Positions 1,631-47,994 of a stretch of DNA of 49,189 nucleotides are shown in pieces; positions within the stretch are counted from its first letter, which is position 1, and each line of letters starts with the position of its first letter. The stretch comes from a virus (Duplodnaviria; Heunggongvirae; Uroviricota; Caudoviricetes): IMG/VR virus record IMGVR_UViG_3300045988_153230. The stretch is one strand, 5' to 3'. The notes under the pieces are model-generated. The model was not told where the DNA came from, did not search any database, and saw nothing but the letters and a program-made list of their open reading frames with translations. The position numbers and the translations under genes were made by a program.

Positions 1631-2478
1631 TAATGTTGGAGTGATTTCCAGGTCTTTCTTAGCCTGTTATAACGCTGCTCAACGAGGGATCGTAAATATG
1701 CAAGGTCAGCACCAGGATACATGCCATCAGCAAATTCCTGGCTAACCTCTCTAGTGATTTGATGACGAAGTTCGGCCTCTCCCTTTTCCTGAACAAGACG
1801 CGCAGCTCTCTCCGCTGCTTTCTGTTTTGCCTTTATCTCTCTGGCCGTCTTCCTCTGACGCCATACATTCTCCATCTGCTCCTGAATAACAATACGCTTA
1901 TAATCAGCCTCCGTTATCGCTTTTTTAAGCCGTTCACTATTCTTCGCATTGAAGTAATTAAGTTTCTGGCTAACCGCACGTCTCCATGCTTGTTCAGTAA
2001 TACCAACGGTTTCCAGCAGTTGATCACGAATCTCTATTTTCGCTGGCCAATACTGTTTATTCACCCGATCCCAGCGACGTTCATAATCAATAAAACCTAA
2101 CGCTTTCAGTTGCGACAACGCCCTTGTACAGCGCGTTATAGACTTGTTCCCAGCTTCGGATACGGTAGACAGGCCGCAAAAATCAGCCAACGCCTCAGCA
2201 CTAGCCAGAACCCGCTTAGAAATGATGTTTACATGGTGCAAAATCGCAGCGATCACAGCATTAATCGCCCGACGACGATGCTCGTTTATCCGGCGCTTCC
2301 GCTCTGACGGTTGATTAACGTAGAACGCAACCTCACACGTAAGATCACGCCCATTAATGCGCTGTAAAGCATCAGATAACACCAGCGGCAGCTTGTGCGT
2401 ATGGTGCTTTGGAGGCTGGAACTCCGGCGACAAATTACAAACGTAAGCTGAACGTAGAGACGGCATTGGTCTATCCAT
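1630..2478 (-). CDS. repA: Plasmid replication initiator, IncFII RepA1-like
   Basis: Conserved core ...RRRAINAVIAAILHHVNI...FCGLSTVSEAGNKSITRCTRALSQLKALGFIDYE... and basic C-terminal region match my recollection of R100/R1 RepA1. ATG at 2478 chosen (MDRPMPSLRSAYV...); the ORF track extends to 2607 with no better start. Confidence 0.75.
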   Translation of the reverse strand: MDRPMPSLRSAYVCNLSPEFQPPKHHTHKLPLVLSDALQRINGRDLTCEVAFYVNQPSERKRRINEHRRRAINAVIAAILHHVNIISKRVLASAEALADFCGLSTVSEAGNKSITRCTRALSQLKALGFIDYERRWDRVNKQYWPAKIEIRDQLLETVGITEQAWRRAVSQKLNYFNAKNSERLKKAITEADYKRIVIQEQMENVWRQRKTAREIKAKQKAAERAARLVQEKGEAELRHQITREVSQEFADGMYPGADLAYLRSLVEQRYNRLRKTWKSLQH

Positions 2479-2788: not shown

Positions 2789-3343
2789 TCAATGATTCCC
2801 AGCCGGAAACCTGCGGTAAAGCGTGGATAAGGTAACATCGAAGATAATCGCTATCCGCTTACGTGAAACACCATTCGCAATAAGCCTTCCGATCTGTTCC
2901 CATTGCTCTGGTGCCAGCTTTGAGCGACGTCCTCCTATCCTGCCGTTAGCCCTTGCCACCGCCAATCCTGCACGCGTTCTTTCAATCATATTTTCCCGCT
3001 CCATCTCTGCGACTGCACTCAGCATCGTGTAGGCAAAGCGGCCAATTGAAGTGCTGATTTTTATCCCTTCCGTAATTGAAATAAACTCAATGTCGTTTGA
3101 TAAAAAATGGTTAAGTAAATCAACAAGATGAATCAGAGAACGCCCCATTCGGTCCAGCTTCCAGACAATAACCGTATCGCCCGGTCGTAACACCTTCAGT
3201 AGCTTATCAAGTCCTGGTCGTTTTGATTTAGCACCGGATATTTTATCTTCAAAAATCCGGTCACATCCTGAACTCCTGAGCGCCTCCAGTTGTAATTCCA
3301 AATTCTGGTCAAAAGTTGACACCCTCGCATAACCATATTGCAT
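2789..3343 (-). CDS. Serine DNA invertase, Gin/Pin/Cin/Hin family
   Basis: 184 aa; N-terminal GYARVSTFDQ with catalytic Ser, and C-terminal ...GRIGGRRSKL...VTLSTLYRR HTH, closely resembling Mu Gin/e14 Pin as I recall them. Adjacent to an invertible tail-fibre segment. Confidence 0.9.
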   Translation of the reverse strand: MQYGYARVSTFDQNLELQLEALRSSGCDRIFEDKISGAKSKRPGLDKLLKVLRPGDTVIVWKLDRMGRSLIHLVDLLNHFLSNDIEFISITEGIKISTSIGRFAYTMLSAVAEMERENMIERTRAGLAVARANGRIGGRRSKLAPEQWEQIGRLIANGVSRKRIAIIFDVTLSTLYRRFPAGNH

Positions 3344-23250: not shown

Positions 23251-25107
23251 CTATATGGTTACGCCTTTACTTATAACTCTACGGCGTCTTCTACGTATAC
23301 CTGACGAGTTCTGCACATACACATTACCTCGCATTTCCTGTTCGGCAAGCCAGTTAAAATTAGGGTTCAGAATTTCCATCGCGGCAGTTGCATAGTTACG
23401 GCAATCAAGAGGCTCGTTACGCTCGTAGACTTTCACCCATTTTTCTTTTGTCTGCCCATTTTTATATTCAAATATTTTTTTCTCTGATAATAATCCTTTA
23501 AAGTATTCGGTATCATATCCTCTGTCAGAATCTAATGGGAAATGCATATAACCAGGACCAGGATCATGTAGTTTAATTCTTGCCATGATGGTCCCTTTAC
23601 CATCATCAACCCCCAAATTAAACAACATAGCACCCACACGGTTATTATTACTTGGCTTTCCTATAAATGGTAAACCTACCCCACCACGCCCCCTGATAGA
23701 GTATATTCGCCTTGATTCTCTCGGCTTAGTAAAGCGATATACCTCTGTCGTAAAATGCCCACCAGAGTCAATACAAACGGAAGAAATCTGTAATTTTCGA
23801 CCGTCACGGAATGACCAGCTACGGAGTAAGTATTCATCAAGTTGTTTCCAGACAACATCTTGTGCGGGATCACCTGGGAATATTTTATATTCTATCCCCC
23901 ATGACTCCTTACCTTTTCCCCAACCGACCAATTCACAAACTAAATACGTGTCCTGTACGTCAACACCAGCACTTAACAATAAAACATCATCTGGTAAAAA
24001 CTCTTCAAACCTTATTCTGCGTTGCAACAAGTATTCAGGATCGATATCGTCTTTAGCATCCTCTTTCCATGGCTCACCCAGCTTAAGGTTAATAAACTCC
24101 ATTAATCCATTTTTATCGCGGTTTCTGGTTGCTTCCGTAAATTCTTCAACCAGCTCTGACAATGCAACCCACGGGGAGTAAAGACTGTTAATATGAAAAC
24201 CAACAATACCTTTAACTCCAGTATGTTCAGCTATCCATACCCCCTTCGCCAGCCAATCAACGTCTGGTTTACCAGATCCGCGCATAATCCCGCCGCACTC
24301 ACAGCACTCATATCTGGCCGTTTCCGGTAACGCCTCACCTGAATCGCTCTTATCCCATCTGACTTGCGACCATTTCATCACCTGCATGGTGCCACAACAT
24401 GGGCAAGGAACATGGTAGTAACGCTGATCGGAGAGCTTAAACCACTTGTGGATTTTGCTCGTTTCCTCCAAAACAGGAGTAGAAACAAAAACTTTCTTAC
24501 GATTATGAAAGTTGGTAGTACGCTGAATACCTAGTTTTAGTGGGTCGCCCTCCTGCGTCACACCGTAACGATCAATCTCATCAGCTAACAGTATTCGAAT
24601 TGGCCTGGATGCAAGACCTGCTGGGGAATTAGCACCAACAAGTGCTATATATCCACCAGCGTAATGCTTCATACGTATAGTCGTGCTGGACTTTTTGGCT
24701 GCACCGCGCCCCTCTTTCCCTTCATGCAGCTTGTGTTTCAAACCAGGGGAATATTTGAACGTCGGATCAATACGCTCTTTTGAAAAAGCCTCAGCCGCCT
24801 CTACCGTTGGATAAATCATCAACTGAGGAGATGGCTCCTGATCTGCAAAGTAACCCATAACATTTAGCTGTAATTCGGATTTACCAATTTGCGAGCTACA
24901 TTGCATCACTACTGTTTCTGTATCAGCGTCACCAATAACATCCATTGGTTCACGCAAATATGGCACTCGGCTTGTACGCCACGGCCCTGGTTCTGGAGAC
25001 GTTCCCGGCGCTACATGACGATACTTATCAGCCCATTCGGAAACAGTTAGCCGTGATTTAGGGCGAAGCGCACGGAAAAAAGCGGTGCTCCATACTGTTT
25101 CGCCCAT
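23251..25107 (-). CDS. Terminase large subunit, lambda GpA family
   Basis: 618 aa; Walker A-like QCSSQIGKSE and overall size match GpA-type terminases. Confidence 0.85.
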   Translation of the reverse strand: MGETVWSTAFFRALRPKSRLTVSEWADKYRHVAPGTSPEPGPWRTSRVPYLREPMDVIGDADTETVVMQCSSQIGKSELQLNVMGYFADQEPSPQLMIYPTVEAAEAFSKERIDPTFKYSPGLKHKLHEGKEGRGAAKKSSTTIRMKHYAGGYIALVGANSPAGLASRPIRILLADEIDRYGVTQEGDPLKLGIQRTTNFHNRKKVFVSTPVLEETSKIHKWFKLSDQRYYHVPCPCCGTMQVMKWSQVRWDKSDSGEALPETARYECCECGGIMRGSGKPDVDWLAKGVWIAEHTGVKGIVGFHINSLYSPWVALSELVEEFTEATRNRDKNGLMEFINLKLGEPWKEDAKDDIDPEYLLQRRIRFEEFLPDDVLLLSAGVDVQDTYLVCELVGWGKGKESWGIEYKIFPGDPAQDVVWKQLDEYLLRSWSFRDGRKLQISSVCIDSGGHFTTEVYRFTKPRESRRIYSIRGRGGVGLPFIGKPSNNNRVGAMLFNLGVDDGKGTIMARIKLHDPGPGYMHFPLDSDRGYDTEYFKGLLSEKKIFEYKNGQTKEKWVKVYERNEPLDCRNYATAAMEILNPNFNWLAEQEMRGNVYVQNSSGIRRRRRRVISKGVTI

Positions 25108-25112
25108 GAGGT

Positions 25113-25664
25113 TTATTCTTCCTGCTTAATAAATCGGGATTCCTGGAGCGCCTGAAGCGCAAAATTAATCTCGTCTTCAATAATGCGTTCGATCTCCCTG
25201 GCTGTTTTGCCTTCACAACGGGGAGCTGCTCTTGGAGCAATACTAAATAAGCGGCTACGCAATTCATTAGCTGCCAGAAATGCATCATCCCTGACCGCAT
25301 CTTTAGCGATGAGAGAGCCTTCCTTTTCTTCAAATTCAAGGCGTTTCAGCTTTGCCTGATAAATTTTTTCTGCGGTCTTAGCCTTGTTGAATTGCACCGC
25401 AACACCGGAAGTACCACCAGCTAATCCGGCATCATCAGCGGGTAACTCTGGTTGTTCCGAAGATATCCCATGCCCTCTTTTTCCATTTTCAGCAGATACC
25501 TCACGACCAACCTGTCGGCTCGCTTCATAAGCCGCACTGGCTTTATCAAAATCCAGCTTGCCGCTTTTCAGCACTGGAATGCGACCGGAACGACAGAGCT
25601 TCGTAACCATTGCCGGAGAAATACCTTTCCGGCGGGCAAACTCTGACTTACTGACGATGGCCAT
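25113..25664 (-). CDS. Terminase small subunit
   Basis: 183 aa from ATG at 25664 (MAIVSKSEFARRKGISPAMVTKL..., N-terminal HTH), directly upstream of the large subunit; 1-nt stop/start overlap with the upstream gene. Confidence 0.65.
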   Translation of the reverse strand: MAIVSKSEFARRKGISPAMVTKLCRSGRIPVLKSGKLDFDKASAAYEASRQVGREVSAENGKRGHGISSEQPELPADDAGLAGGTSGVAVQFNKAKTAEKIYQAKLKRLEFEEKEGSLIAKDAVRDDAFLAANELRSRLFSIAPRAAPRCEGKTAREIERIIEDEINFALQALQESRFIKQEE

Positions 25665-26254
25665 TACTTGCAACCATTAGCAAGATACTGCACAAATCCC
25701 TCATGCGTTTCATGCGCGTCGTGGTACTGACGATAAACATCCAGCAACAATGCAATTTCCATATCCGTCGCGGGAATACGTTCTTTATCAATAGCCAGGT
25801 ACTTAATTTGAACAACAGGGGAAGAATTATCGTCTTCTTCCTGCGGCTGTTCATCGCTTAACATTTCGTCAAGCTCTGCATCATTAAACCCAAGCAGATC
25901 AATATCAAAATCATCATCCATTAACTCTTTGACTTCTTCGGCCAGAAGCTGCATATCCCAGCCAGCATTTAAGGCCAGCTTGTTATCTGCAATCCTGTAA
26001 GCCTTCTTCTGTTTTTCAGAAAGGTTACTCAACCGAATCGCCGGAACTTTATCCATTTCCAGAATTTCGGCTGCTGCAAGCCGACCATGCCCCGCAATCA
26101 GTTCATTCTTTTCATCGATCAGCACAGGATTAGTGAACCCGAACTCACGGATACTGTTCACCAACTGTTCAACCTGCTCATCTGAATGAGTCCGTGAATT
26201 TTTGGCGTATCTGAGCAGCTTACCGACTGGTAAATATTCGATTTTTAGAGCCAT
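25664..26254 (-). CDS. ParB/Srx-like nuclease-domain protein, paralog 1
   Basis: 196 aa; ...KNSRTHSDEQVEQLVNSIREFGFTNPVLIDEKNELIAGHGRLAAA... ParB N-terminal domain motif; paralogous to 28921..29544. Confidence 0.7.
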   Translation of the reverse strand: MALKIEYLPVGKLLRYAKNSRTHSDEQVEQLVNSIREFGFTNPVLIDEKNELIAGHGRLAAAEILEMDKVPAIRLSNLSEKQKKAYRIADNKLALNAGWDMQLLAEEVKELMDDDFDIDLLGFNDAELDEMLSDEQPQEEDDNSSPVVQIKYLAIDKERIPATDMEIALLLDVYRQYHDAHETHEGFVQYLANGCK

Positions 26255-26811
26255 TTTTTAACCGCCATAACACAACAGGTTAAAGAAAACCGTTTAACTT
26301 ATTGATACTAAAAGAGAAAAATGACGATCTTTTTACTCATAAAAAATCACACAAAACAGCATAATTATCTGATTTTATTAAGTTTTTATAAGTAAAAAGG
26401 ATCTTGAGATGGTTTTTTGGTTAAAAGATTGGATGTATTTGCATGATTTATAACGATTTTTATCAGAACAACATCACATTGGTTAAAGATCTGCGCGTAT
26501 CTTGATGATCTAAAAGAAAATTTTCTACTTTCTTTTTACCAGCACAAATACAGCAAAAAATCACGTTTTCCCGATATTTTTCAATGAGATGAGTAAATTT
26601 CTTTTACCGCAACTTTTAACCTAACTTTTTTCACGTTTAGCTAGCCGAACATCGGGGTTCGAATGACCCGCATCCAACGCTTTTGGCCAGAAGGACCCAA
26701 TTCTGCCGGACGATGAAACGATGCTCGTACTCCCCCACAGACAGCCAGCGAGCGACGCTACAGAACACAGTGAATACACTCTGCATAACAACACCATCAA
26801 CCACACGATGA

Positions 26812-27531
26812 TTAACGAGAGAAGGTCTTAGAAAGAATGTCATCAATAGCCTTTGTGACTTCATCAGCAAACGCATCCTCACCAGCACGCAGCGCCACGC
26901 CATGCCAATCAAGACGCTGCGAATAGTTAGGTTGCTGGATAAACGTAAGGATCAACGTAGGACGCCGCCCAACGCGCTGCCAGACGCCTGGTTGAAGCGG
27001 GTTACTTGTACCAGGTCGAACAACAAAAAACTCCGTAGGCTTGCCCTGACGGCGATTTTGATGCGCATCTCGCTGAACTCTTAGGCCAGATAAGACCTGC
27101 TGTAATTGCCCCCGCGAAATATTCCCGTATTTGTCCAGCTTTGCGCCGGGACCAGGAGCAAGCTGCCAGCCGTTAGGCAAATATCCACCAGCCCTTAGCG
27201 CCCCTTCTGAGCGTTTGTACTGTCGTTGGCCACCTTCGATTTGCGGAGTCAACGTTACAGGGGCTGGCGTTCCTCCCCATTCACGAGCATACACAATGGC
27301 TGTAGGATCACTCTTCTTTGCGGCCAAAACGTAAGTAGAGTTCTGAATCCACGGCGTGGGCCTGTCAAATACCCGATTAATTTCATTCTTAATCGCAGCC
27401 TGAGAAGCCTTTGCCGTTCTGGTTGCCGCAAGCGCCATTGCGAACGGCAATTCGCGTTCTTCAAGGCGCTGGAGTTGTCGTTGAATATCCTGAGAAGAAA
27501 AATCCATCTTTATCTCAATTCTGTCAGCCAC
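26812..27531 (-). CDS. Hypothetical protein inside the ParB-domain cluster
   Basis: 239 aa; GTG start at 27531 preceded by AGGGGG. No family recognised. Confidence 0.5.
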   Translation of the reverse strand: MADRIEIKMDFSSQDIQRQLQRLEERELPFAMALAATRTAKASQAAIKNEINRVFDRPTPWIQNSTYVLAAKKSDPTAIVYAREWGGTPAPVTLTPQIEGGQRQYKRSEGALRAGGYLPNGWQLAPGPGAKLDKYGNISRGQLQQVLSGLRVQRDAHQNRRQGKPTEFFVVRPGTSNPLQPGVWQRVGRRPTLILTFIQQPNYSQRLDWHGVALRAGEDAFADEVTKAIDDILSKTFSR

Positions 27532-27547: not shown

Positions 27548-28921
27548 CTACTTAATCAACGGCCGGAAAGCCGCCAGCACATCATCAGATCGTCCGATTG
27601 TTGAACCACCAGGCAACGGCAACTCAAACTCAAAACGAACAGCTTTCTCCAGACTCGCCCAACTAAGGGAATCATCGTTAATGACGTGCAAATACCAGCT
27701 CTTACAGTTGAATATTGACCGCTTAATCCTGAAACCATGTACACGACACAACTGCTTCACTTCCTCATCAGAGTGAAACTTCTGGTAAAACCAGTGCCCC
27801 TTCCGGTACAACGCGGTAAAACCGTTATGATCAATAAAATAAAGCCGGCTTTTGGAACTCGCCGCCTGTGTTTGCTTCAGGACTGTTTCCAGCTCTCCAC
27901 GGCTACGACCAGAAAAGAATATTGACCCACCAGCTTTACACAGGCCTTTCAGAACCGTCAGAACGGACCATTCAGCCTCGACACTATCGACCGAGTTCAA
28001 AACGCTATCGCAAATCACGTAGTCGTAACGCCCTCGCGTTTTTAAGTCATCCACCAGCGTATCAATCATCCGGTTTGTTGCGGTCCTATCCAGAGTGTTT
28101 CCAGCGCCCTTACGGCGGAAAAGCTCGAGATCATGCAGGTTATATCCCTTTGCCCTGAGCATTCGCGCGTAGTCTCCCTGCCCCGAACCAAAATCAATTC
28201 CTCTTGGCGTCTTGGCAATGATCGGGAGGATCAACGACTCATACAGATTTGATTTCAGGCTGCCACCATTACGCAACCGCATAAGCTGCGCATACGTCTG
28301 GATGTATGTTGTTTTCTCCAGATGAGAATACTCAAATACACCATAAGTTTTATTCAGATAACTTTGGTATTTTTCCTTCTCAACATCAGGGATCACAAAC
28401 ACCGTTAGCGGTGTGCGCGTCATCTTCGCTGCTAATGCATACTGAGCACAATGAATAACCTCACCAGACTGAGTAGCAACACAACCACCCCACGGACCAT
28501 ACTTGATAACCAGTTCCGCTATGTTCTTTCGAACATATGCCATTTTCGCGCGCATATTGCCTGAGATCTGGCTTGCCGATACCTGAACAAAACCATGCTT
28601 ATCTTCCAGACCGGACACCCTGCAACGCTCATCTCCGCTATCAAAATCCGTTCCGTTATGCAGTTGGTTAAACCGTACTTCGTCGTATACCGTCGTTTCA
28701 CAGGGCAACACATACACCGCAGCACGCGTTATTCCCAACTTACGTAGCGCCTTCGTCCTTTGGTGTCCCGCCACCAGCAAATCGCCGCGCACTATCAATG
28801 GCTTCACAAGCCCCAGCTCCCTGACGCTTTCCGCCAGCCTCGCAAGATCATCCTCACCGATAAAACGCGGGTTATATTCCGCGCCGCGTAGGTGCGTTAT
28901 GTCGTAATTCAGGTGAAGCAT
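27548..28921 (-). CDS. ParB-like domain fused to class I SAM-dependent methyltransferase
   Basis: N-terminal ...LGLVKPLIVRGDLLVAGHQRTKALRKLG... (ParB/Srx motif); C-terminal Rossmann MTase motifs GIDFGSGQGDYARML (motif I), acidic LHDLE, YDYVICDSVLNSV, LKGLCKAGGSIFFSG. No DPPY/NPPY motif, so not a canonical amino-MTase. ATG at 28921 overlaps the stop of the upstream ParB gene. Confidence 0.7.
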   Translation of the reverse strand: MLHLNYDITHLRGAEYNPRFIGEDDLARLAESVRELGLVKPLIVRGDLLVAGHQRTKALRKLGITRAAVYVLPCETTVYDEVRFNQLHNGTDFDSGDERCRVSGLEDKHGFVQVSASQISGNMRAKMAYVRKNIAELVIKYGPWGGCVATQSGEVIHCAQYALAAKMTRTPLTVFVIPDVEKEKYQSYLNKTYGVFEYSHLEKTTYIQTYAQLMRLRNGGSLKSNLYESLILPIIAKTPRGIDFGSGQGDYARMLRAKGYNLHDLELFRRKGAGNTLDRTATNRMIDTLVDDLKTRGRYDYVICDSVLNSVDSVEAEWSVLTVLKGLCKAGGSIFFSGRSRGELETVLKQTQAASSKSRLYFIDHNGFTALYRKGHWFYQKFHSDEEVKQLCRVHGFRIKRSIFNCKSWYLHVINDDSLSWASLEKAVRFEFELPLPGGSTIGRSDDVLAAFRPLIK

Positions 28922-29544
28922 CAGCACACCTCCCCAGCCAGCAATGCGGATACAAATCCGATATAGCTGCCATTATCATCAACATAACGAGACACCGCGC
29001 AGTCAAAACGATCCGCTTCCTCATCCGTTGCCGGGATTTTATGACCTCCAAATGACAGGTACTGAACTTTTACGCCTGATTTGGCCTCATCCTTCTCAAA
29101 TGGGATATCCATACCCTCTGTGTCATCGTAGACCGCCGCACTCAATAAGTTATCCAGTTCGCGCTGAGTAAAACCAATTGAGTCCAGAGCAAAATCATCG
29201 GCCGCAAGATCTGCAAGTTCCGCGCTTAACAACTCTTCATCCCAACCAGCATTCAGCGGAATACGGTTGTCGGCCAGACGATATGCCTTCTTCTGATTCT
29301 CCGTTAGCCCTTCCAGAACAATGCAGGGAACGTCATCCATCCCCAACTGAGTGGCCGCAGCAATTCGACCATGACCAGCAATTACAACGTTGTTCTCGTC
29401 TATCAGGATCGGATTAGTCCATCCGTACTCCTGTATGCTGGCAACAATCTGATCTACCTGCTCCACGGAGTGTGTGCGAGCGTTCTTTTCATAACCAATC
29501 AACACAGAAAGTGGTAAAGAAACCACATTAAGATGTTTTGTCAT
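28921..29544 (-). CDS. ParB/Srx-like nuclease-domain protein, paralog 2
   Basis: 207 aa; ...KNARTHSVEQVDQIVASIQEYGWTNPILIDENNVVIAGHGRIAAA...; clear paralog of 25664..26254. Confidence 0.7.
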   Translation of the reverse strand: MTKHLNVVSLPLSVLIGYEKNARTHSVEQVDQIVASIQEYGWTNPILIDENNVVIAGHGRIAAATQLGMDDVPCIVLEGLTENQKKAYRLADNRIPLNAGWDEELLSAELADLAADDFALDSIGFTQRELDNLLSAAVYDDTEGMDIPFEKDEAKSGVKVQYLSFGGHKIPATDEEADRFDCAVSRYVDDNGSYIGFVSALLAGEVC

Positions 29545-32274: not shown

Positions 32275-32350
32275 TGGTGGCCCCTACCGGATTTGAACCG
32301 ATGACCGTGCGATTATGAGTCGCCAGCTCTAACCACTGAGCTAAGGGGCC
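32275..32350 (-). tRNA. tRNA with CAU anticodon (Ile2/Met type, ileX-like)
   Basis: Minus-strand sequence GGCCCCTTAGCTCAGTGGTTAGAGCTGGCGACTCATAATCGCACGGTCATCGGTTCAAATCCGGTAGGGGCCACCA folds by eye into acceptor, D, anticodon (loop CTCATAA) and T arms with encoded CCA; the 5' half matches E. coli ileX as I recall it. Confidence 0.85.
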
Positions 32351-43253: not shown

Positions 43254-43503
43254 GAGAAGGTGACGGCCTCCAGCGCCAACTGTTGGCCGTCGCGACACAA
43301 CAAGGGGAATTTGTTATGTCCGAGCAACAATATACACGGTTACTAAAAACTCGTCTAATAGACCTCAAACGGCTGCAAGCTGGTCGCTTATTTGCCCTGC
43401 TATCCACCAGGCCAGAATGGGTACGTGAAGCAGTTCTGAAAGGCTTAATGCGCTCAAGCGTTTAAATTCAACCATAAAAAAGGCCCCCGAAGGGGCCTAA
43501 TCG

Positions 43504-43626
43504 CTACTTGCTGCTAATGTTTATCGTCACATTCAGAGCGTTATCAGTAATCTTCCAACCCTCCCCATGTGGCGTAAACAAAGCTCCAGTAACAACGATA
43601 AAAATACACATGTAGTATTTTTTCAT
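43504..43626 (-). CDS. Small hydrophobic protein (40 aa), candidate type I toxin-like peptide
   Basis: ATG at 43626: MKKYYMCIFIVVTGALFTPHGEGWKITDNALNVTINISSK; a bidirectional hairpin (GGCCCCTTCGGGGGCC, ~43478..43500) follows on the minus strand. Confidence 0.4.
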   Translation of the reverse strand: MKKYYMCIFIVVTGALFTPHGEGWKITDNALNVTINISSK

Positions 43627-43940
43627 TGTGTGGCCCTTACAGGCCGTTTCACGGCATCCCCACCGACGAAAATGACGCGAGAGCAAGCACGCTGTTTGTG
43701 CCTGCGTGGTACGGCAAGTGGATAATCCTTTCCTGAAAGTCAGTGCCCGGGTGCGAATCGGCGGAAAGGCCCCAAGCCATATTACACGTCATACCCTTCA
43801 TAATGAAGGAATAAAAAACGCTTTTATTACATAAGATTACACGTAAATAAGTTAAAAACCTTCATTTTGCATGAGCTAATGAGCTAAATTTTTTTATATG
43901 AATAGTGGACTATTCACCTCAGTTGGGTAAGAATGTAGTT

Positions 43941-44597: not shown

Positions 44598-45046
44598 TTT
44601 TTATCCCCATACTGAATTTTTTCTTGTTCCCGACTTTAACAAAATTCCACAACTCAGGACTGATTGATTCCCTACAGGAACTATACATTCCCATTTTTAG
44701 CATATCAAGAAAATTAAAAGCCCCGCATTCAAACCCACACTATGTGGTTTAGTCTGTTAAAATCCCTCTGTATTGACATAAATGCGCCATTGGTGGACAC
44801 TTTCCGAGCCGTAGCAAAATCTACGGTCGGGATTGGAACCCCGATAATCATCATGGCGCATACCGCGTTAGCGGTTTTTTTATGCGTAAAGCACTGCTAC
44901 ACCCAAATTATGGTGGGGCGTGCGGGGGAGTCGTAAGACTCGCCGGATTCCATGGTGACCGGTAGTTCCAACCCTGTACGTCTCACCACCCAATGATTGG
45001 AACCAGACGGTGGTGAGTATCCTTAACCTTTAAGGGAACTATCACC

Positions 45047-47086: not shown

Positions 47087-47721
47087 AGAAATCTCCTTTT
47101 AGATATAAGGGTAAAGCAATATCGTATTGGATCTTCCTTTAGACACAACCCCCCCTCCCCCCATACAGGGTGCCCTTTACCGGAGTTCCGGCCCCTTCTC
47201 AAAAGCATCAAAAAAAGCTCGAGATCGAGTACCGGAACTCATGCCACCAGATAGCTCCACATCGTTTCCAATGCTTCGCCGCCGTGTGCGCCCTGTGGCC
47301 CACAATCATGCCATTGGTCGTCTGATATACCTTCTTCTGCTCATAGAGCACAGGCGAGTTGTCGCACTCCTGCCTTTCTCAGACTCGACTTAGTTTAGAT
47401 CGCTGTTCCTGGCTTGCGTCAGCACACTTTCCCCTTGTACGCATACCCGCGCGCCACTTCGCCCAAAAACACCGAACCCAACGAAGTGGCAAAGACAACG
47501 ACGCGAGCGTGAGTCTGAAATGGGCACCAGTAAAAAAGGGGTTGCAGGCGCAAAAAGATTTGATTATCTTTAGACGCAAGAAAGCCGCCCCAATCAAGAG
47601 GTGTCTTTTTAAATCCAGCCTACCAAGCAAGATTTAAATTTCAGACTGAAAACCGCCCGGCAAGGCGGTTTTTGTCTTTCTGGCGCTTACATTACACCAC
47701 CATAAAACGATCCGTAAAGGA

Positions 47722-47994
47722 TCATTTGATCCCTTGTTCCAATTCTGACGACACTTTAACCTTTTCCCATACAAGGGTTTGCAGCCTTAACAGAATCGCG
47801 TCTTTATCAAGGTGTGAAAGATCCTTCACCATATCGTCAAACGACAGAACGCGAATGGCCATCTCAATGACCCTCGGCGGCTCCCCCTTCTCATATCGCT
47901 TATATGTAGCCAACGATATCCCAAATTCTTCGGCGGCTCGCTCCTGCGTCCAGTTCATCCCACGACGCCATAATTTCAATTCATAACCCGTCAT
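47722..47994 (-). CDS. XRE-family HTH regulator
   Basis: 90 aa from ATG at 47994 (GAGGAGG RBS): MTGYELKLWRRGMNWTQERAAEEFGISLATYKRYEKG... Confidence 0.6.
   Translation of the reverse strand: MTGYELKLWRRGMNWTQERAAEEFGISLATYKRYEKGEPPRVIEMAIRVLSFDDMVKDLSHLDKDAILLRLQTLVWEKVKVSSELEQGIK

Follow-up and report, generated by a model that had tools for sequence, protein, structure and literature searches.

In lambda-like phages the 12-base cohesive end is closely similar to GGGCGGCGACCT, especially over bases 1-6, CG is highly conserved where it flanks the nick positions (PMC4669245), and cosQ, a highly conserved 7-bp site, is required for termination (Feiss and colleagues). In lambda, the I2 segment covers bp 18-50 (PMC4856287), and the R3 site of both lambda and N15 lies at about bp 48-65 (PMC9026076); 12-nt 5' extensions are annotated for the two phages. 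For the Serratia phage BZS1 a 12-nt 5' cohesive end was determined by PhageTerm and confirmed by end and junction sequencing (PMC7556043), and the Vibrio phages vB_VpaM_XM1, X29, phi 2 and Rostov 7 belong to the proposed 'Weiviridae' (PMC11432961). Here we compare with these systems a gene-free gap of 557 bp (positions 26255-26811) in a tailed-phage sequence of 49,189 bp (IMG/VR record IMGVR_UViG_3300045988_153230; the whole of this stretch is referred to as the window), which lies between the stop of a 239-aa gene (26812) and the start of a gene for a ParB/Srx-domain protein (26254). Our findings make it very probable that this gap is the lambda-type cos site of a 49-kb temperate myovirus phage-plasmid, with 12-base sticky ends and a layout in which cosQ occupies 26692-26698, cosN 26657-26668 and a cosB-like arm 26255-26656.

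The window makes up one whole circular replicon and is collinear over its full length with the E. coli plasmid p48 (NZ_CP023368.1). RefSeq annotates p48 with RepA and a ParA-family protein, with a toxin-antitoxin pair and a lysis cassette, and with a head module like that of lambda and a contractile tail like that of P2. The Yersinia phages vB_YpM_39, vB_YpM_41 and vB_YpM_44 share 98-99.6% identity with the element over much of the genome (98.8% for vB_YpM_39 and 99.6% for vB_YpM_41 over 12.7 kb). Collinearity with a circular plasmid, the gene content of p48 and the existence of near-identical Yersinia phages together tell us that the element is a temperate myovirus maintained in plasmid form. 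Matches to the 651 bp around the gap occur in 72 of the 5426 complete E. coli genomes, that of ATCC 25922 among them, and in 71 of these 72 they are on plasmids of ~48 kb; further matches are found on plasmids of E. fergusonii, E. albertii and Klebsiella.

Evidence for the genome ends of the element comes from the ends of database records, which place two features in the gap:

26657..26668, minus strand: cosN, the 12-nt cohesive-end sequence GGTCATTCGAAC, from the record ends of near-identical phages
26669/26668 on the minus strand and 26656/26657 on the plus strand: predicted nicks, from the record ends

The records of vB_YpM_39 and vB_YpM_41 have as first base the equivalent of window position 26668 and run leftward with GGTCATTCGAACCCCGATG, in which the 12-mer GGTCATTCGAAC comes first; they finish with ...GTTGGATGCG (...GGATGCG), that is with the base just before the 12-mer. 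The record of vB_YpM_44 starts 12 nt further in (CCCGATG...) and finishes with ...GGATGCGGGTCATTCGAAC, which carries the 12-mer. From these ends it follows that two break points bracket one and the same 12-mer and lie exactly 12 nt apart, as would be expected for 12-nt cohesive ends. The 12-mer occurs a single time in the replicon and is invariant in all enterobacterial relatives. The Vibrio phages, whose records come from other laboratories, agree with this: the record of XM1 (TerL, the large terminase subunit, 65% identical) starts at the homologous base and has the 12-mer GGTGCTCGCGAC at both ends, plus an extra A, a duplication that would be typical of a filled-in, A-tailed 5' overhang; the X29 record breaks 11 nt into the homologous 12-mer, and in Rostov 7 the homologous cos sequence is internal to the record. 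From the duplicated 12-mer of XM1 and the 5' ends of BZS1, we infer by analogy that the single-stranded extension of the element, too, has 5' polarity. Our literature search met the 12-mers in no relevant paper, and the XM1 paper makes no mention of cohesive ends or PhageTerm.

The sequences on either side of this 12-mer add three more features to the core:

26692..26698, minus strand: cosQ-like heptamer GGGTCCT, found once in the 49-kb window with both strands counted, and 23 nt upstream of the nick
26669..26691, minus strand: 23-nt spacer from cosQ to the top-strand nick, ending in CG; its length and terminal CG are common to lambda, N15, the Salmonella plasmids and the Vibrio phages
26622..26656, minus strand: I2-like segment from cosN to the first repeat, CCCG...TTCG.CTAGCTA (CTAGCTA at 26638-26644), kept in E. 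coli, Salmonella, Vibrio and BZS1, in a position matching that of lambda I2

We take GGGTCCT to be cosQ on account of its conservation between lambda and N15 and of the 2001 work of Wieczorek and Feiss, in which cosQ is reported to have been defined. When the cores are aligned side by side, with the 12-mer set between slashes, lambda reads GGGTCCT-ttccggtgatccgacaggttaCG / GGGCGGCGACCT / CGCGGGTTTTCGCTA and the element GGGTCCT-tctggccaaaagcgttggatgCG / GGTCATTCGAAC / CCCGATGTTCGGCTA, so that heptamer, 23-nt spacing, CG before the nick and a 12-mer opening with GG are the same, to the base, in lambda, N15 and the element. The heptamer is invariant in 22 unique relatives and recurs in the Vibrio phages XM1, X29 and Rostov 7, in two relatives listed here as L049 and L050 (TerL 50-61% identical) and in BZS1. 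As for the core as a whole, it is present in three Salmonella plasmids, in ~20 IMG/VR elements (TerL 87-100% identical) and in L049 and L050, and two distant relatives (L046, L051; at about 3250-3300) have a one-base cosQ variant, GGTTCCT, with cosN otherwise conserved. For one relative, L040 (TerL 77% identical), nothing recognisable as a cos core is present in the 4 kb upstream of TerL. In L022, L023 and L047 the sequence upstream of TerL is only 312, 1262 and 699 nt long, respectively, which for L022 and L023 is probably too short to judge. The IMG/VR relatives come from a TerL-based search, which was more useful than scanning IMG/VR for exact matches to the cos core (4 hits only). A packaging site was among the functions that the first-pass annotation, made from the letters of the window, had offered for the gap, and this proposal is strongly supported by the record ends, the lambda/N15 geometry, the conservation of the core and the presence of a TerL of the gpA family, although not for the reasons it had given. 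Its emphasis was on an AT-rich island of ~550 bp with clustered GATC sites. The gap itself is real, but AT-richness is confined to 26255-26640 (28.2% GC compared to 44.5% overall, the most AT-rich stretch of 386 bp in the replicon), and the right-hand 171 bp (26641-26811) have 53.8% GC. Since cosQ and cosN (26657-26698) are in this GC-normal part and do not fall within the GATC cluster, a focus on GATC and AT-richness led to the accessory arm and not to the cut site.

The AT-rich part forms the cosB-like arm, whose features are as follows (figures with a plus sign are positions counted from the nick):

26600..26621, minus strand: repeat copies 1 (GGTTAAAAG, +48) and 2 (GGTAAAAGA, +61), at the R3-equivalent position of cosB
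26532..26540, minus strand: repeat copy 3 (GGTAAAAAG, +129), position and orientation kept in the Salmonella plasmids
26481-26489, plus strand: repeat copy 4 (+188, inverted), inside the 90-bp dispensable segment
26441..26530, no strand assigned: dispensable segment of 90 bp, absent from the plaque-forming phage vB_YpM_44 (L052; alignment A2, columns 171-260)
26419..26427, plus strand: repeat copy 5 (GGTTAAAAG, inverted, +250), with a copy at the same position in the Salmonella plasmids
26391-26399, plus strand: repeat copy 6 (+278, inverted), outer end of the 78-bp palindrome
26326..26403, no strand assigned: imperfect palindrome of 78 bp, with arms at 26329-26359 and 26369-26399, bounded by two conserved GATC sites
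26362..26374, minus strand: IHF-like site AATCAGATAATTA (WATCARNNNNTTR) at the palindrome centre, present in Salmonella as AATCAGACAATTA
26329-26337, minus strand: repeat copy 7 (+332, forward), outer end of the 78-bp palindrome
26255..26286: repeat copies 8 (26278-26286, plus strand, +391) and 9 (26255-26263, minus strand, +406), position kept in Salmonella

Between the nick and the start codon of the ParB/Srx gene (+13 to +414) there are thus nine 9-mers resembling GGTWAAARR, five forward and four inverted, and the last of them overlaps the ribosome-binding region of that gene. With the strict pattern GGTWAAARR, 7 of the 11 copies in the window fall within 402 bp, a 212-fold density which none of 2000 mononucleotide shuffles reached in count. 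All nine relaxed copies are found at the same place and in the same direction in Salmonella elements with only ~67% identity here, whose intervening DNA has diverged, and the block AAAAGTTAGGTTAAAAGT holding copies 1 and 2, which occupy the place of R3 in lambda and N15, is invariant in the 22 relatives. The Vibrio phages have five repeats with a GTTAAC core from +50 onwards, and BZS1 has three GGTAACA repeats, from +46 to +73, that run straight into terS, the gene for the small terminase subunit TerS. The inverted repeat (I1) that makes up the palindrome has arms of 31 nt, 77% complementary, and the sequences GATCCTTTTTA and GTAAAAAGATC are conserved in at least 90% of the 22 relatives. At its centre, 295 nt from the nick, lies the IHF-like site, a candidate by consensus match (eight such matches occur in the window, two of them in the gap); by analogy, a palindrome with a central IHF-like site resembles the R3-I1-R2 arrangement of lambda (PMC4669245). 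In addition, AA/TT dinucleotides are phased at ~10.5 bp to a score that 0 of 2000 block shuffles reached, which suggests curved DNA. The segment 26441-26530, with copy 4 and the GATC sites at 26488 and 26507, must be dispensable, as it is missing from the viable vB_YpM_44.

Nine short repeats and curved DNA in the most AT-rich stretch of the replicon would also suit a replication origin, lytic or plasmid, in which an AT-rich region unwinds next to iteron-like repeats. To our minds, such an origin is extremely improbable here: there are no DnaA boxes (TTWTNCACA) in the gap, the gene for the RepA initiator lies ~24 kb away (about 1631-2478, minus strand) with a GATC trio of its own upstream, the 9-mers come in both orientations and at positions fixed relative to the nick, including that of R3, and in the Vibrio and Serratia phages the homologous arrays lie no more than 150 nt from a genome end, directly before the packaging genes. 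With the DnaA scan of the gap negative, repA that far off and repeats at the lambda R3 position, the lytic origin put forward in the first-pass annotation finds no support, and of the DnaA and IHF matches it had advised looking for, the gap holds the latter alone, the one at 26362-26374 being conserved. A ParABS centromere (parS) was considered as well and rejected; the neighbouring protein has a ParB_N/Srx domain only, in which no helix-turn-helix (HTH) was detected, and the plasmid ParA is encoded elsewhere with a small partner gene of its own.

The GATC sites of the gap lie at 26326, 26400, 26488 and 26507, in the contexts CGATCT, GGATCT, AGATCT and TGATCT, and three of them are immediately next to a repeat copy (GTAAAAAGATC, GTAAAAAGGATC, GGTTAAAGATC). 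If they formed a Dam-methylation-sensitive control region similar to the pac site of P1, methylation would gate recognition or cleavage and in this way control packaging or late expression. Consistent with this, four GATC sites within 185 bp of AT-rich DNA exceed the 0.98 expected from local composition (uncorrected P = 0.018), the pair at 26326 and 26400, which marks the ends of the palindrome and comprises the only two sites conserved in at least 90% of the 22 relatives, is well kept, and the element encodes an MT-A70-family methyltransferase as well as a ParB-methyltransferase fusion. Replicon-wide, however, the cluster does not go beyond chance, as the window has three stretches of 185 bp with at least four GATC sites compared to 1.45 expected under random placement (P = 0.17), and GATC is under-represented overall (136 sites compared to 171 in shuffles). 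Besides, relatives carry between one and four sites in this segment, two of the four being missing in the Salmonella relatives; vB_YpM_44 lacks those at 26488 and 26507 altogether by deletion of the 90-bp segment, and each of these two is lost by a point change in vB_YpM_41 or vB_YpM_39. The pac site of P1 has TGATCA/G hexamers, clustered on both sides of the cut, whose methylation is required, together with an IHF site, and serves headful packaging by PacA/PacB. In the element, the GATC contexts do not fit the P1 hexamer, and the terminase is of the gpA/cos type rather than a headful terminase of the PacA/PacB type. As two of the sites are dispensable and variable and relatives carry one to four, we regard a switch of the P1 kind as very unlikely, with a small probability left for the conserved pair at 26326 and 26400. 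The clustering noted in the first-pass annotation therefore holds as a count of four sites in 185 bp and not as an enrichment beyond chance across the replicon, and the case for a methylation-sensitive control region is weak, given that viable phages and Salmonella relatives go without two of the sites; we conclude that the GATC cluster is incidental to the cos site. Tighter GATC clusters exist elsewhere, with three sites in 42 bp (2710-2751) and three in 23 bp (47709-47731); the former lies upstream of the repA start, by ~230-270 bp, and makes a stronger candidate than the gap for an origin or promoter that responds to Dam.

Every gene around the gap is on the minus strand, and their leftward order is 239-aa gene, gap, ParB/Srx, TerS, TerL, a DUF6148 protein and a portal gene of the lambda family (Pfam):

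26812-27531, minus strand: 239-aa gene, right neighbour of the gap, with its stop at 26812
25664..26254, minus strand: ParB/Srx-domain protein of 196 aa, the first gene after cos (Pfam ParB_N, E = 3.8e-8; PHROG 620, E = 4.6e-75)
25113..25673, minus strand: small terminase subunit TerS, 183-186 aa, with an N-terminal HTH (PHROG 57 'terminase small subunit', E = 7.4e-42)
23251..25107, minus strand: large terminase subunit TerL, gpA family (Pfam GpA_ATPase, E = 7e-76; GpA_nuclease, E = 1e-84)

Over 599 aa, TerL and lambda gpA share 28% identity. When a TerS-family profile was aligned by hhalign, its residues 7-38 matched the winged HTH of lambda gpNu1 (residues 3-33), weakly so (E = 5.5e-4, probability 30%). 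The ParB/Srx protein is one of three with a ParB_N/Srx domain whose genes flank cos (27548-29544 and 25664-26254), namely a 207-aa protein, a 459-aa ParB_N-methyltransferase fusion and the 196-aa protein itself; the 207-aa and 196-aa proteins are 48% identical and would be encoded at opposite genome ends in virion DNA. Over its N-terminal 145 aa, the 196-aa protein is 59% identical to the product of the first gene of Vibrio phage X29 (E. coli versus Vibrio), and more distant relatives with the same cos core do not have the gene, their terS starting 70-170 nt after cosN.

Which protein reads the repeats is where the ParB/Srx gene comes in. Instead of serving TerS, or in addition to doing so, the array might be a platform or operator for this adjacent protein, which might regulate a ParB-terS-terL operon or act as a third packaging factor, with cosN and cosQ still being the cut site. 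In keeping with this, the gene comes first after cos in the enterobacterial and the Vibrio groups alike, both of which have arrays (five to nine copies) in front of it, two of three more distant relatives without the gene have only 70-170 nt between cosN and terS and lack a comparable array, the ribosome-binding region of ParB is overlapped by copy 9, and the Vibrio phages lack the distal 270 bp. Yet BZS1 has three GGTAACA repeats and no ParB gene between its cos and terS, only ParB_N/Srx and neither an HTH nor any other sequence-specific DNA-binding domain was detected in the 196-aa protein, and from E. coli to Vibrio its N-terminal 145 aa retain 59% identity across a change of DNA motif; by contrast, the HTH region of TerS diverges together with the motif between the groups. 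We therefore hold the ParB/Srx protein to be an unlikely reader of the array: because BZS1 has repeats but no ParB gene and because the TerS HTH changes along with the motif, TerS appears, on these sequence comparisons, to be the more likely binder. In a bolder version, which we consider quite unlikely, a ParB/Srx-fold third component would be needed for the initiation of packaging; it would load on the nine-copy array over 400 bp of curved DNA, possibly in a nucleotide-dependent or nicking mode, and help or gate the terminase at cosN, and through the GATC pair of the palindrome this step would respond to methylation by methyltransferases that the element itself encodes. Were this true, the cos system would include an accessory factor of the ParB-like kind, in loose analogy with the HNH proteins of HK97-like phages.

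Several observations weigh against a lambda-type cos site in the gap and have kept us from calling it certain. The records of the Yersinia phages are flagged circular, which makes their start points circumstantial, our literature search found neither a paper on vB_YpM_39, vB_YpM_41 and vB_YpM_44 nor a method by which their ends were determined, and the ends of this exact element are predicted from the database records of its relatives. The base pair following the second nick is CC, with CG coming one base later, where lambda-like phages have CG; the same CC right flank is found in the Vibrio and Salmonella relatives. The cohesive end shares just 3 of 12 bases with GGGCGGCGACCT, and 3 of the first 6, which leaves the element outside the lambda-like cohesive end group. 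BLASTP sees no similarity between TerS and gpNu1, and the profile match above is weak and restricted to the HTH. The repeat pattern, furthermore, was defined after inspecting the sequence. Finally, the cosB-like region spans ~400 bp compared to 120 bp in lambda, 90 bp of it are dispensable and the ParB/Srx gene is interposed before terS; with this length and this gene in between, part of the AT-rich DNA may well serve another purpose.

As for coding content, the first-pass annotation was right in seeing no convincing open reading frame (ORF) in the gap, for the ORFs either have at most 61 aa with GTG or TTG as start codon or run into the neighbouring gene, and none is in RefSeq. Equally, its description of the gap as the largest gene-free stretch of the late region agrees with the RefSeq annotation of near-identical p48, in which it is the largest late intergenic gap, and its distance of ~0.6 kb from the small terminase gene is borne out by a terS start ~0.58 kb to the left. 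A small gene or small RNA was rejected on the grounds that the ORFs are short with poor starts and absent from RefSeq, and that a Rfam search of 26150-26900 gave zero matches even at E<=1. We also rejected a tRNA remnant or attP: GGGGTTCGAATGACCC at 26654-26669 resembles a tRNA T-arm, but the only tRNA called by ARAGORN is at 32275-32350, Rfam has none here and the element is, moreover, a plasmid rather than an integrated prophage. A consensus scan of 25900-27100 found 0 sigma-70-like promoters (2.0 expected) and no terminator within the gap, the sole terminator-like site of the scan (27041-27055) being inside the 239-aa gene. Without a sigma-70-like promoter or a terminator in the gap, the late transcript probably reads through it, although a promoter of another type may be present. 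The 239-aa protein matches PHROG 1924 'minor tail protein' (E = 2.5e-97), a doubtful label; its gene is at the opposite genome end from the tail module and adjoins the ParB-methyltransferase gene, and a homologue is named glycosyltransferase in one RefSeq record.

Taken as a lambda-type cos site, the gap may be envisaged to work as follows. During lytic growth, the gpA-family terminase (TerS and TerL) would recognise the site on concatemeric DNA, with the N-terminal HTH of TerS predicted to bind the GGTWAAARR repeats, the first two at +48 and +61 and the rest over ~400 bp of putatively curved, AT-rich DNA in which IHF might act at the centre of the inverted repeat pair. TerS bound in this way would position TerL on cosN, where TerL is expected to nick both strands 12 bp apart and so leave 5' cohesive ends GGTCATTCGAAC. 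Packaging would then proceed leftward in window coordinates, through ParB/Srx, terS, terL, portal and onward, and stop at the next cos, with GGGTCCT, 23 bp upstream of the nick, acting as the cosQ termination signal.

The cos site was previously unannotated, with no cos annotation in the records of the phage-plasmid family or of vB_YpM_39, vB_YpM_41 and vB_YpM_44. It is in itself an ordinary lambda-type feature, unusual for its very long cosB-like array and for a ParB/Srx gene between cos and terS. If our assignment is correct, it fixes physical ends and packaging direction for a widespread family of ~48-kb phage-plasmids in E. coli, Salmonella and Klebsiella and for the three Yersinia phages. 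It would also mean that both the heptamer of lambda cosQ and the spacing of exactly 23 bp that goes with it have been kept where the terminase has only 28% identity to gpA, and in hosts as far as Vibrio, which should be useful for studying how cosQ positions the nuclease at termination. A fragment of ~470 bp (26255-26720) is predicted to render any plasmid packageable by these phages, and the ParB/Srx gene next to cos becomes a candidate accessory factor.

A few observations concern the phage-plasmid at large. Rfam matches above the gathering score are ryfA, isrK and C4 antisense RNA, at 43476-43774 (minus strand), 44808-44881 (plus strand) and 44906-44993 (plus strand), respectively; C4 is the immunity RNA of the P1/P7 type and suggests an antirepressor module under antisense control in this phage-plasmid. 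The tRNA at 32275-32350 (minus strand) has a CAT anticodon and is tRNA-Met for ARAGORN, whereas its homologue in the RefSeq annotation of p48 is tRNA-Ile, implying lysidine modification. The toxin of the phage-plasmid is of the RelE/ParE type.

How, then, does the locus compare with known systems? With P1 pac, the likeness lies in a packaging recognition site of a phage-plasmid with GATC-containing repeats and an IHF site; the element differs in its cos-type terminase and in having few GATC sites, variable and in part dispensable, as opposed to the headful packaging by PacA/PacB and the required hexamer methylation of P1. With lambda, the element shares a large terminase of the gpA family, GGGTCCT exactly 23 nt before the top-strand nick with a spacer ending in CG, a 12-nt stagger with a cohesive end opening in GG, a conserved AT-containing segment followed by the first repeat at ~+48 (the R3 position), repeats in both orientations, a putative IHF site between an inverted pair and, downstream, a small terminase gene with an N-terminal HTH. 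Unlike lambda, it has CC rather than CG after the second nick, repeats unrelated to the lambda R sites, nine copies over ~400 bp rather than three over 120 bp, the ParB/Srx gene between cos and terS, a TerL with 28% identity to gpA and a TerS not detectably similar to gpNu1 by BLASTP. N15 is a plasmid-prophage like the element, with a gpA-type terminase, the cosQ GGGTCCT, the 23-nt spacing and a 12-nt end that is 5' in N15 and predicted to be so in the element, and its rR2, a distal inverted accessory copy ~200 bp from R3, offers a precedent for distant inverted copies (PMC4669245); what sets N15 apart is a single critical R3, a lambda-like cohesive end, a distance of 88 nt between the end and terS, a prophage that is linear and has telomeres, and the tail of a siphovirus. 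BZS1 (vB_SspM_BZS1), a temperate myovirus, resembles the element in its gpA-type TerL (37.5% identical) and TerS (26% identical, E = 1e-10), in GGGTCCT upstream of the end, in CTAGCTA at ~+25 and in GGTAAC-type direct repeats from +46, and differs in that GGGTCCT lies 24 nt before the annotated end (23 here), the cohesive end is GCATTGCGCGCC, the three repeats fit within 30 nt, terS follows at +75 without an intervening ParB gene and the prophage integrates instead of being a plasmid. Moving the BZS1 nick by one base would give CG/GG.../CG flanks as in lambda, so that the annotated end may be off by one. In the Vibrio phages vB_VpaM_XM1, X29, phi 2 and Rostov 7, only ~140 nt separate the end from ParB, five repeats form a single array, and the distal 270-bp segment holding the palindrome and IHF-like site is missing. 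Common to them and the element are the triad of ParB-like, TerS and TerL genes after the end, TerL being 63-65% identical, the geometry of cosQ, 23 nt and nick, a 12-mer sharing 6 of 12 bases, CCCG...TTCG.CTAGCTA and a set of repeats, which in the Vibrio phages have a GTTAAC core and begin at +50.

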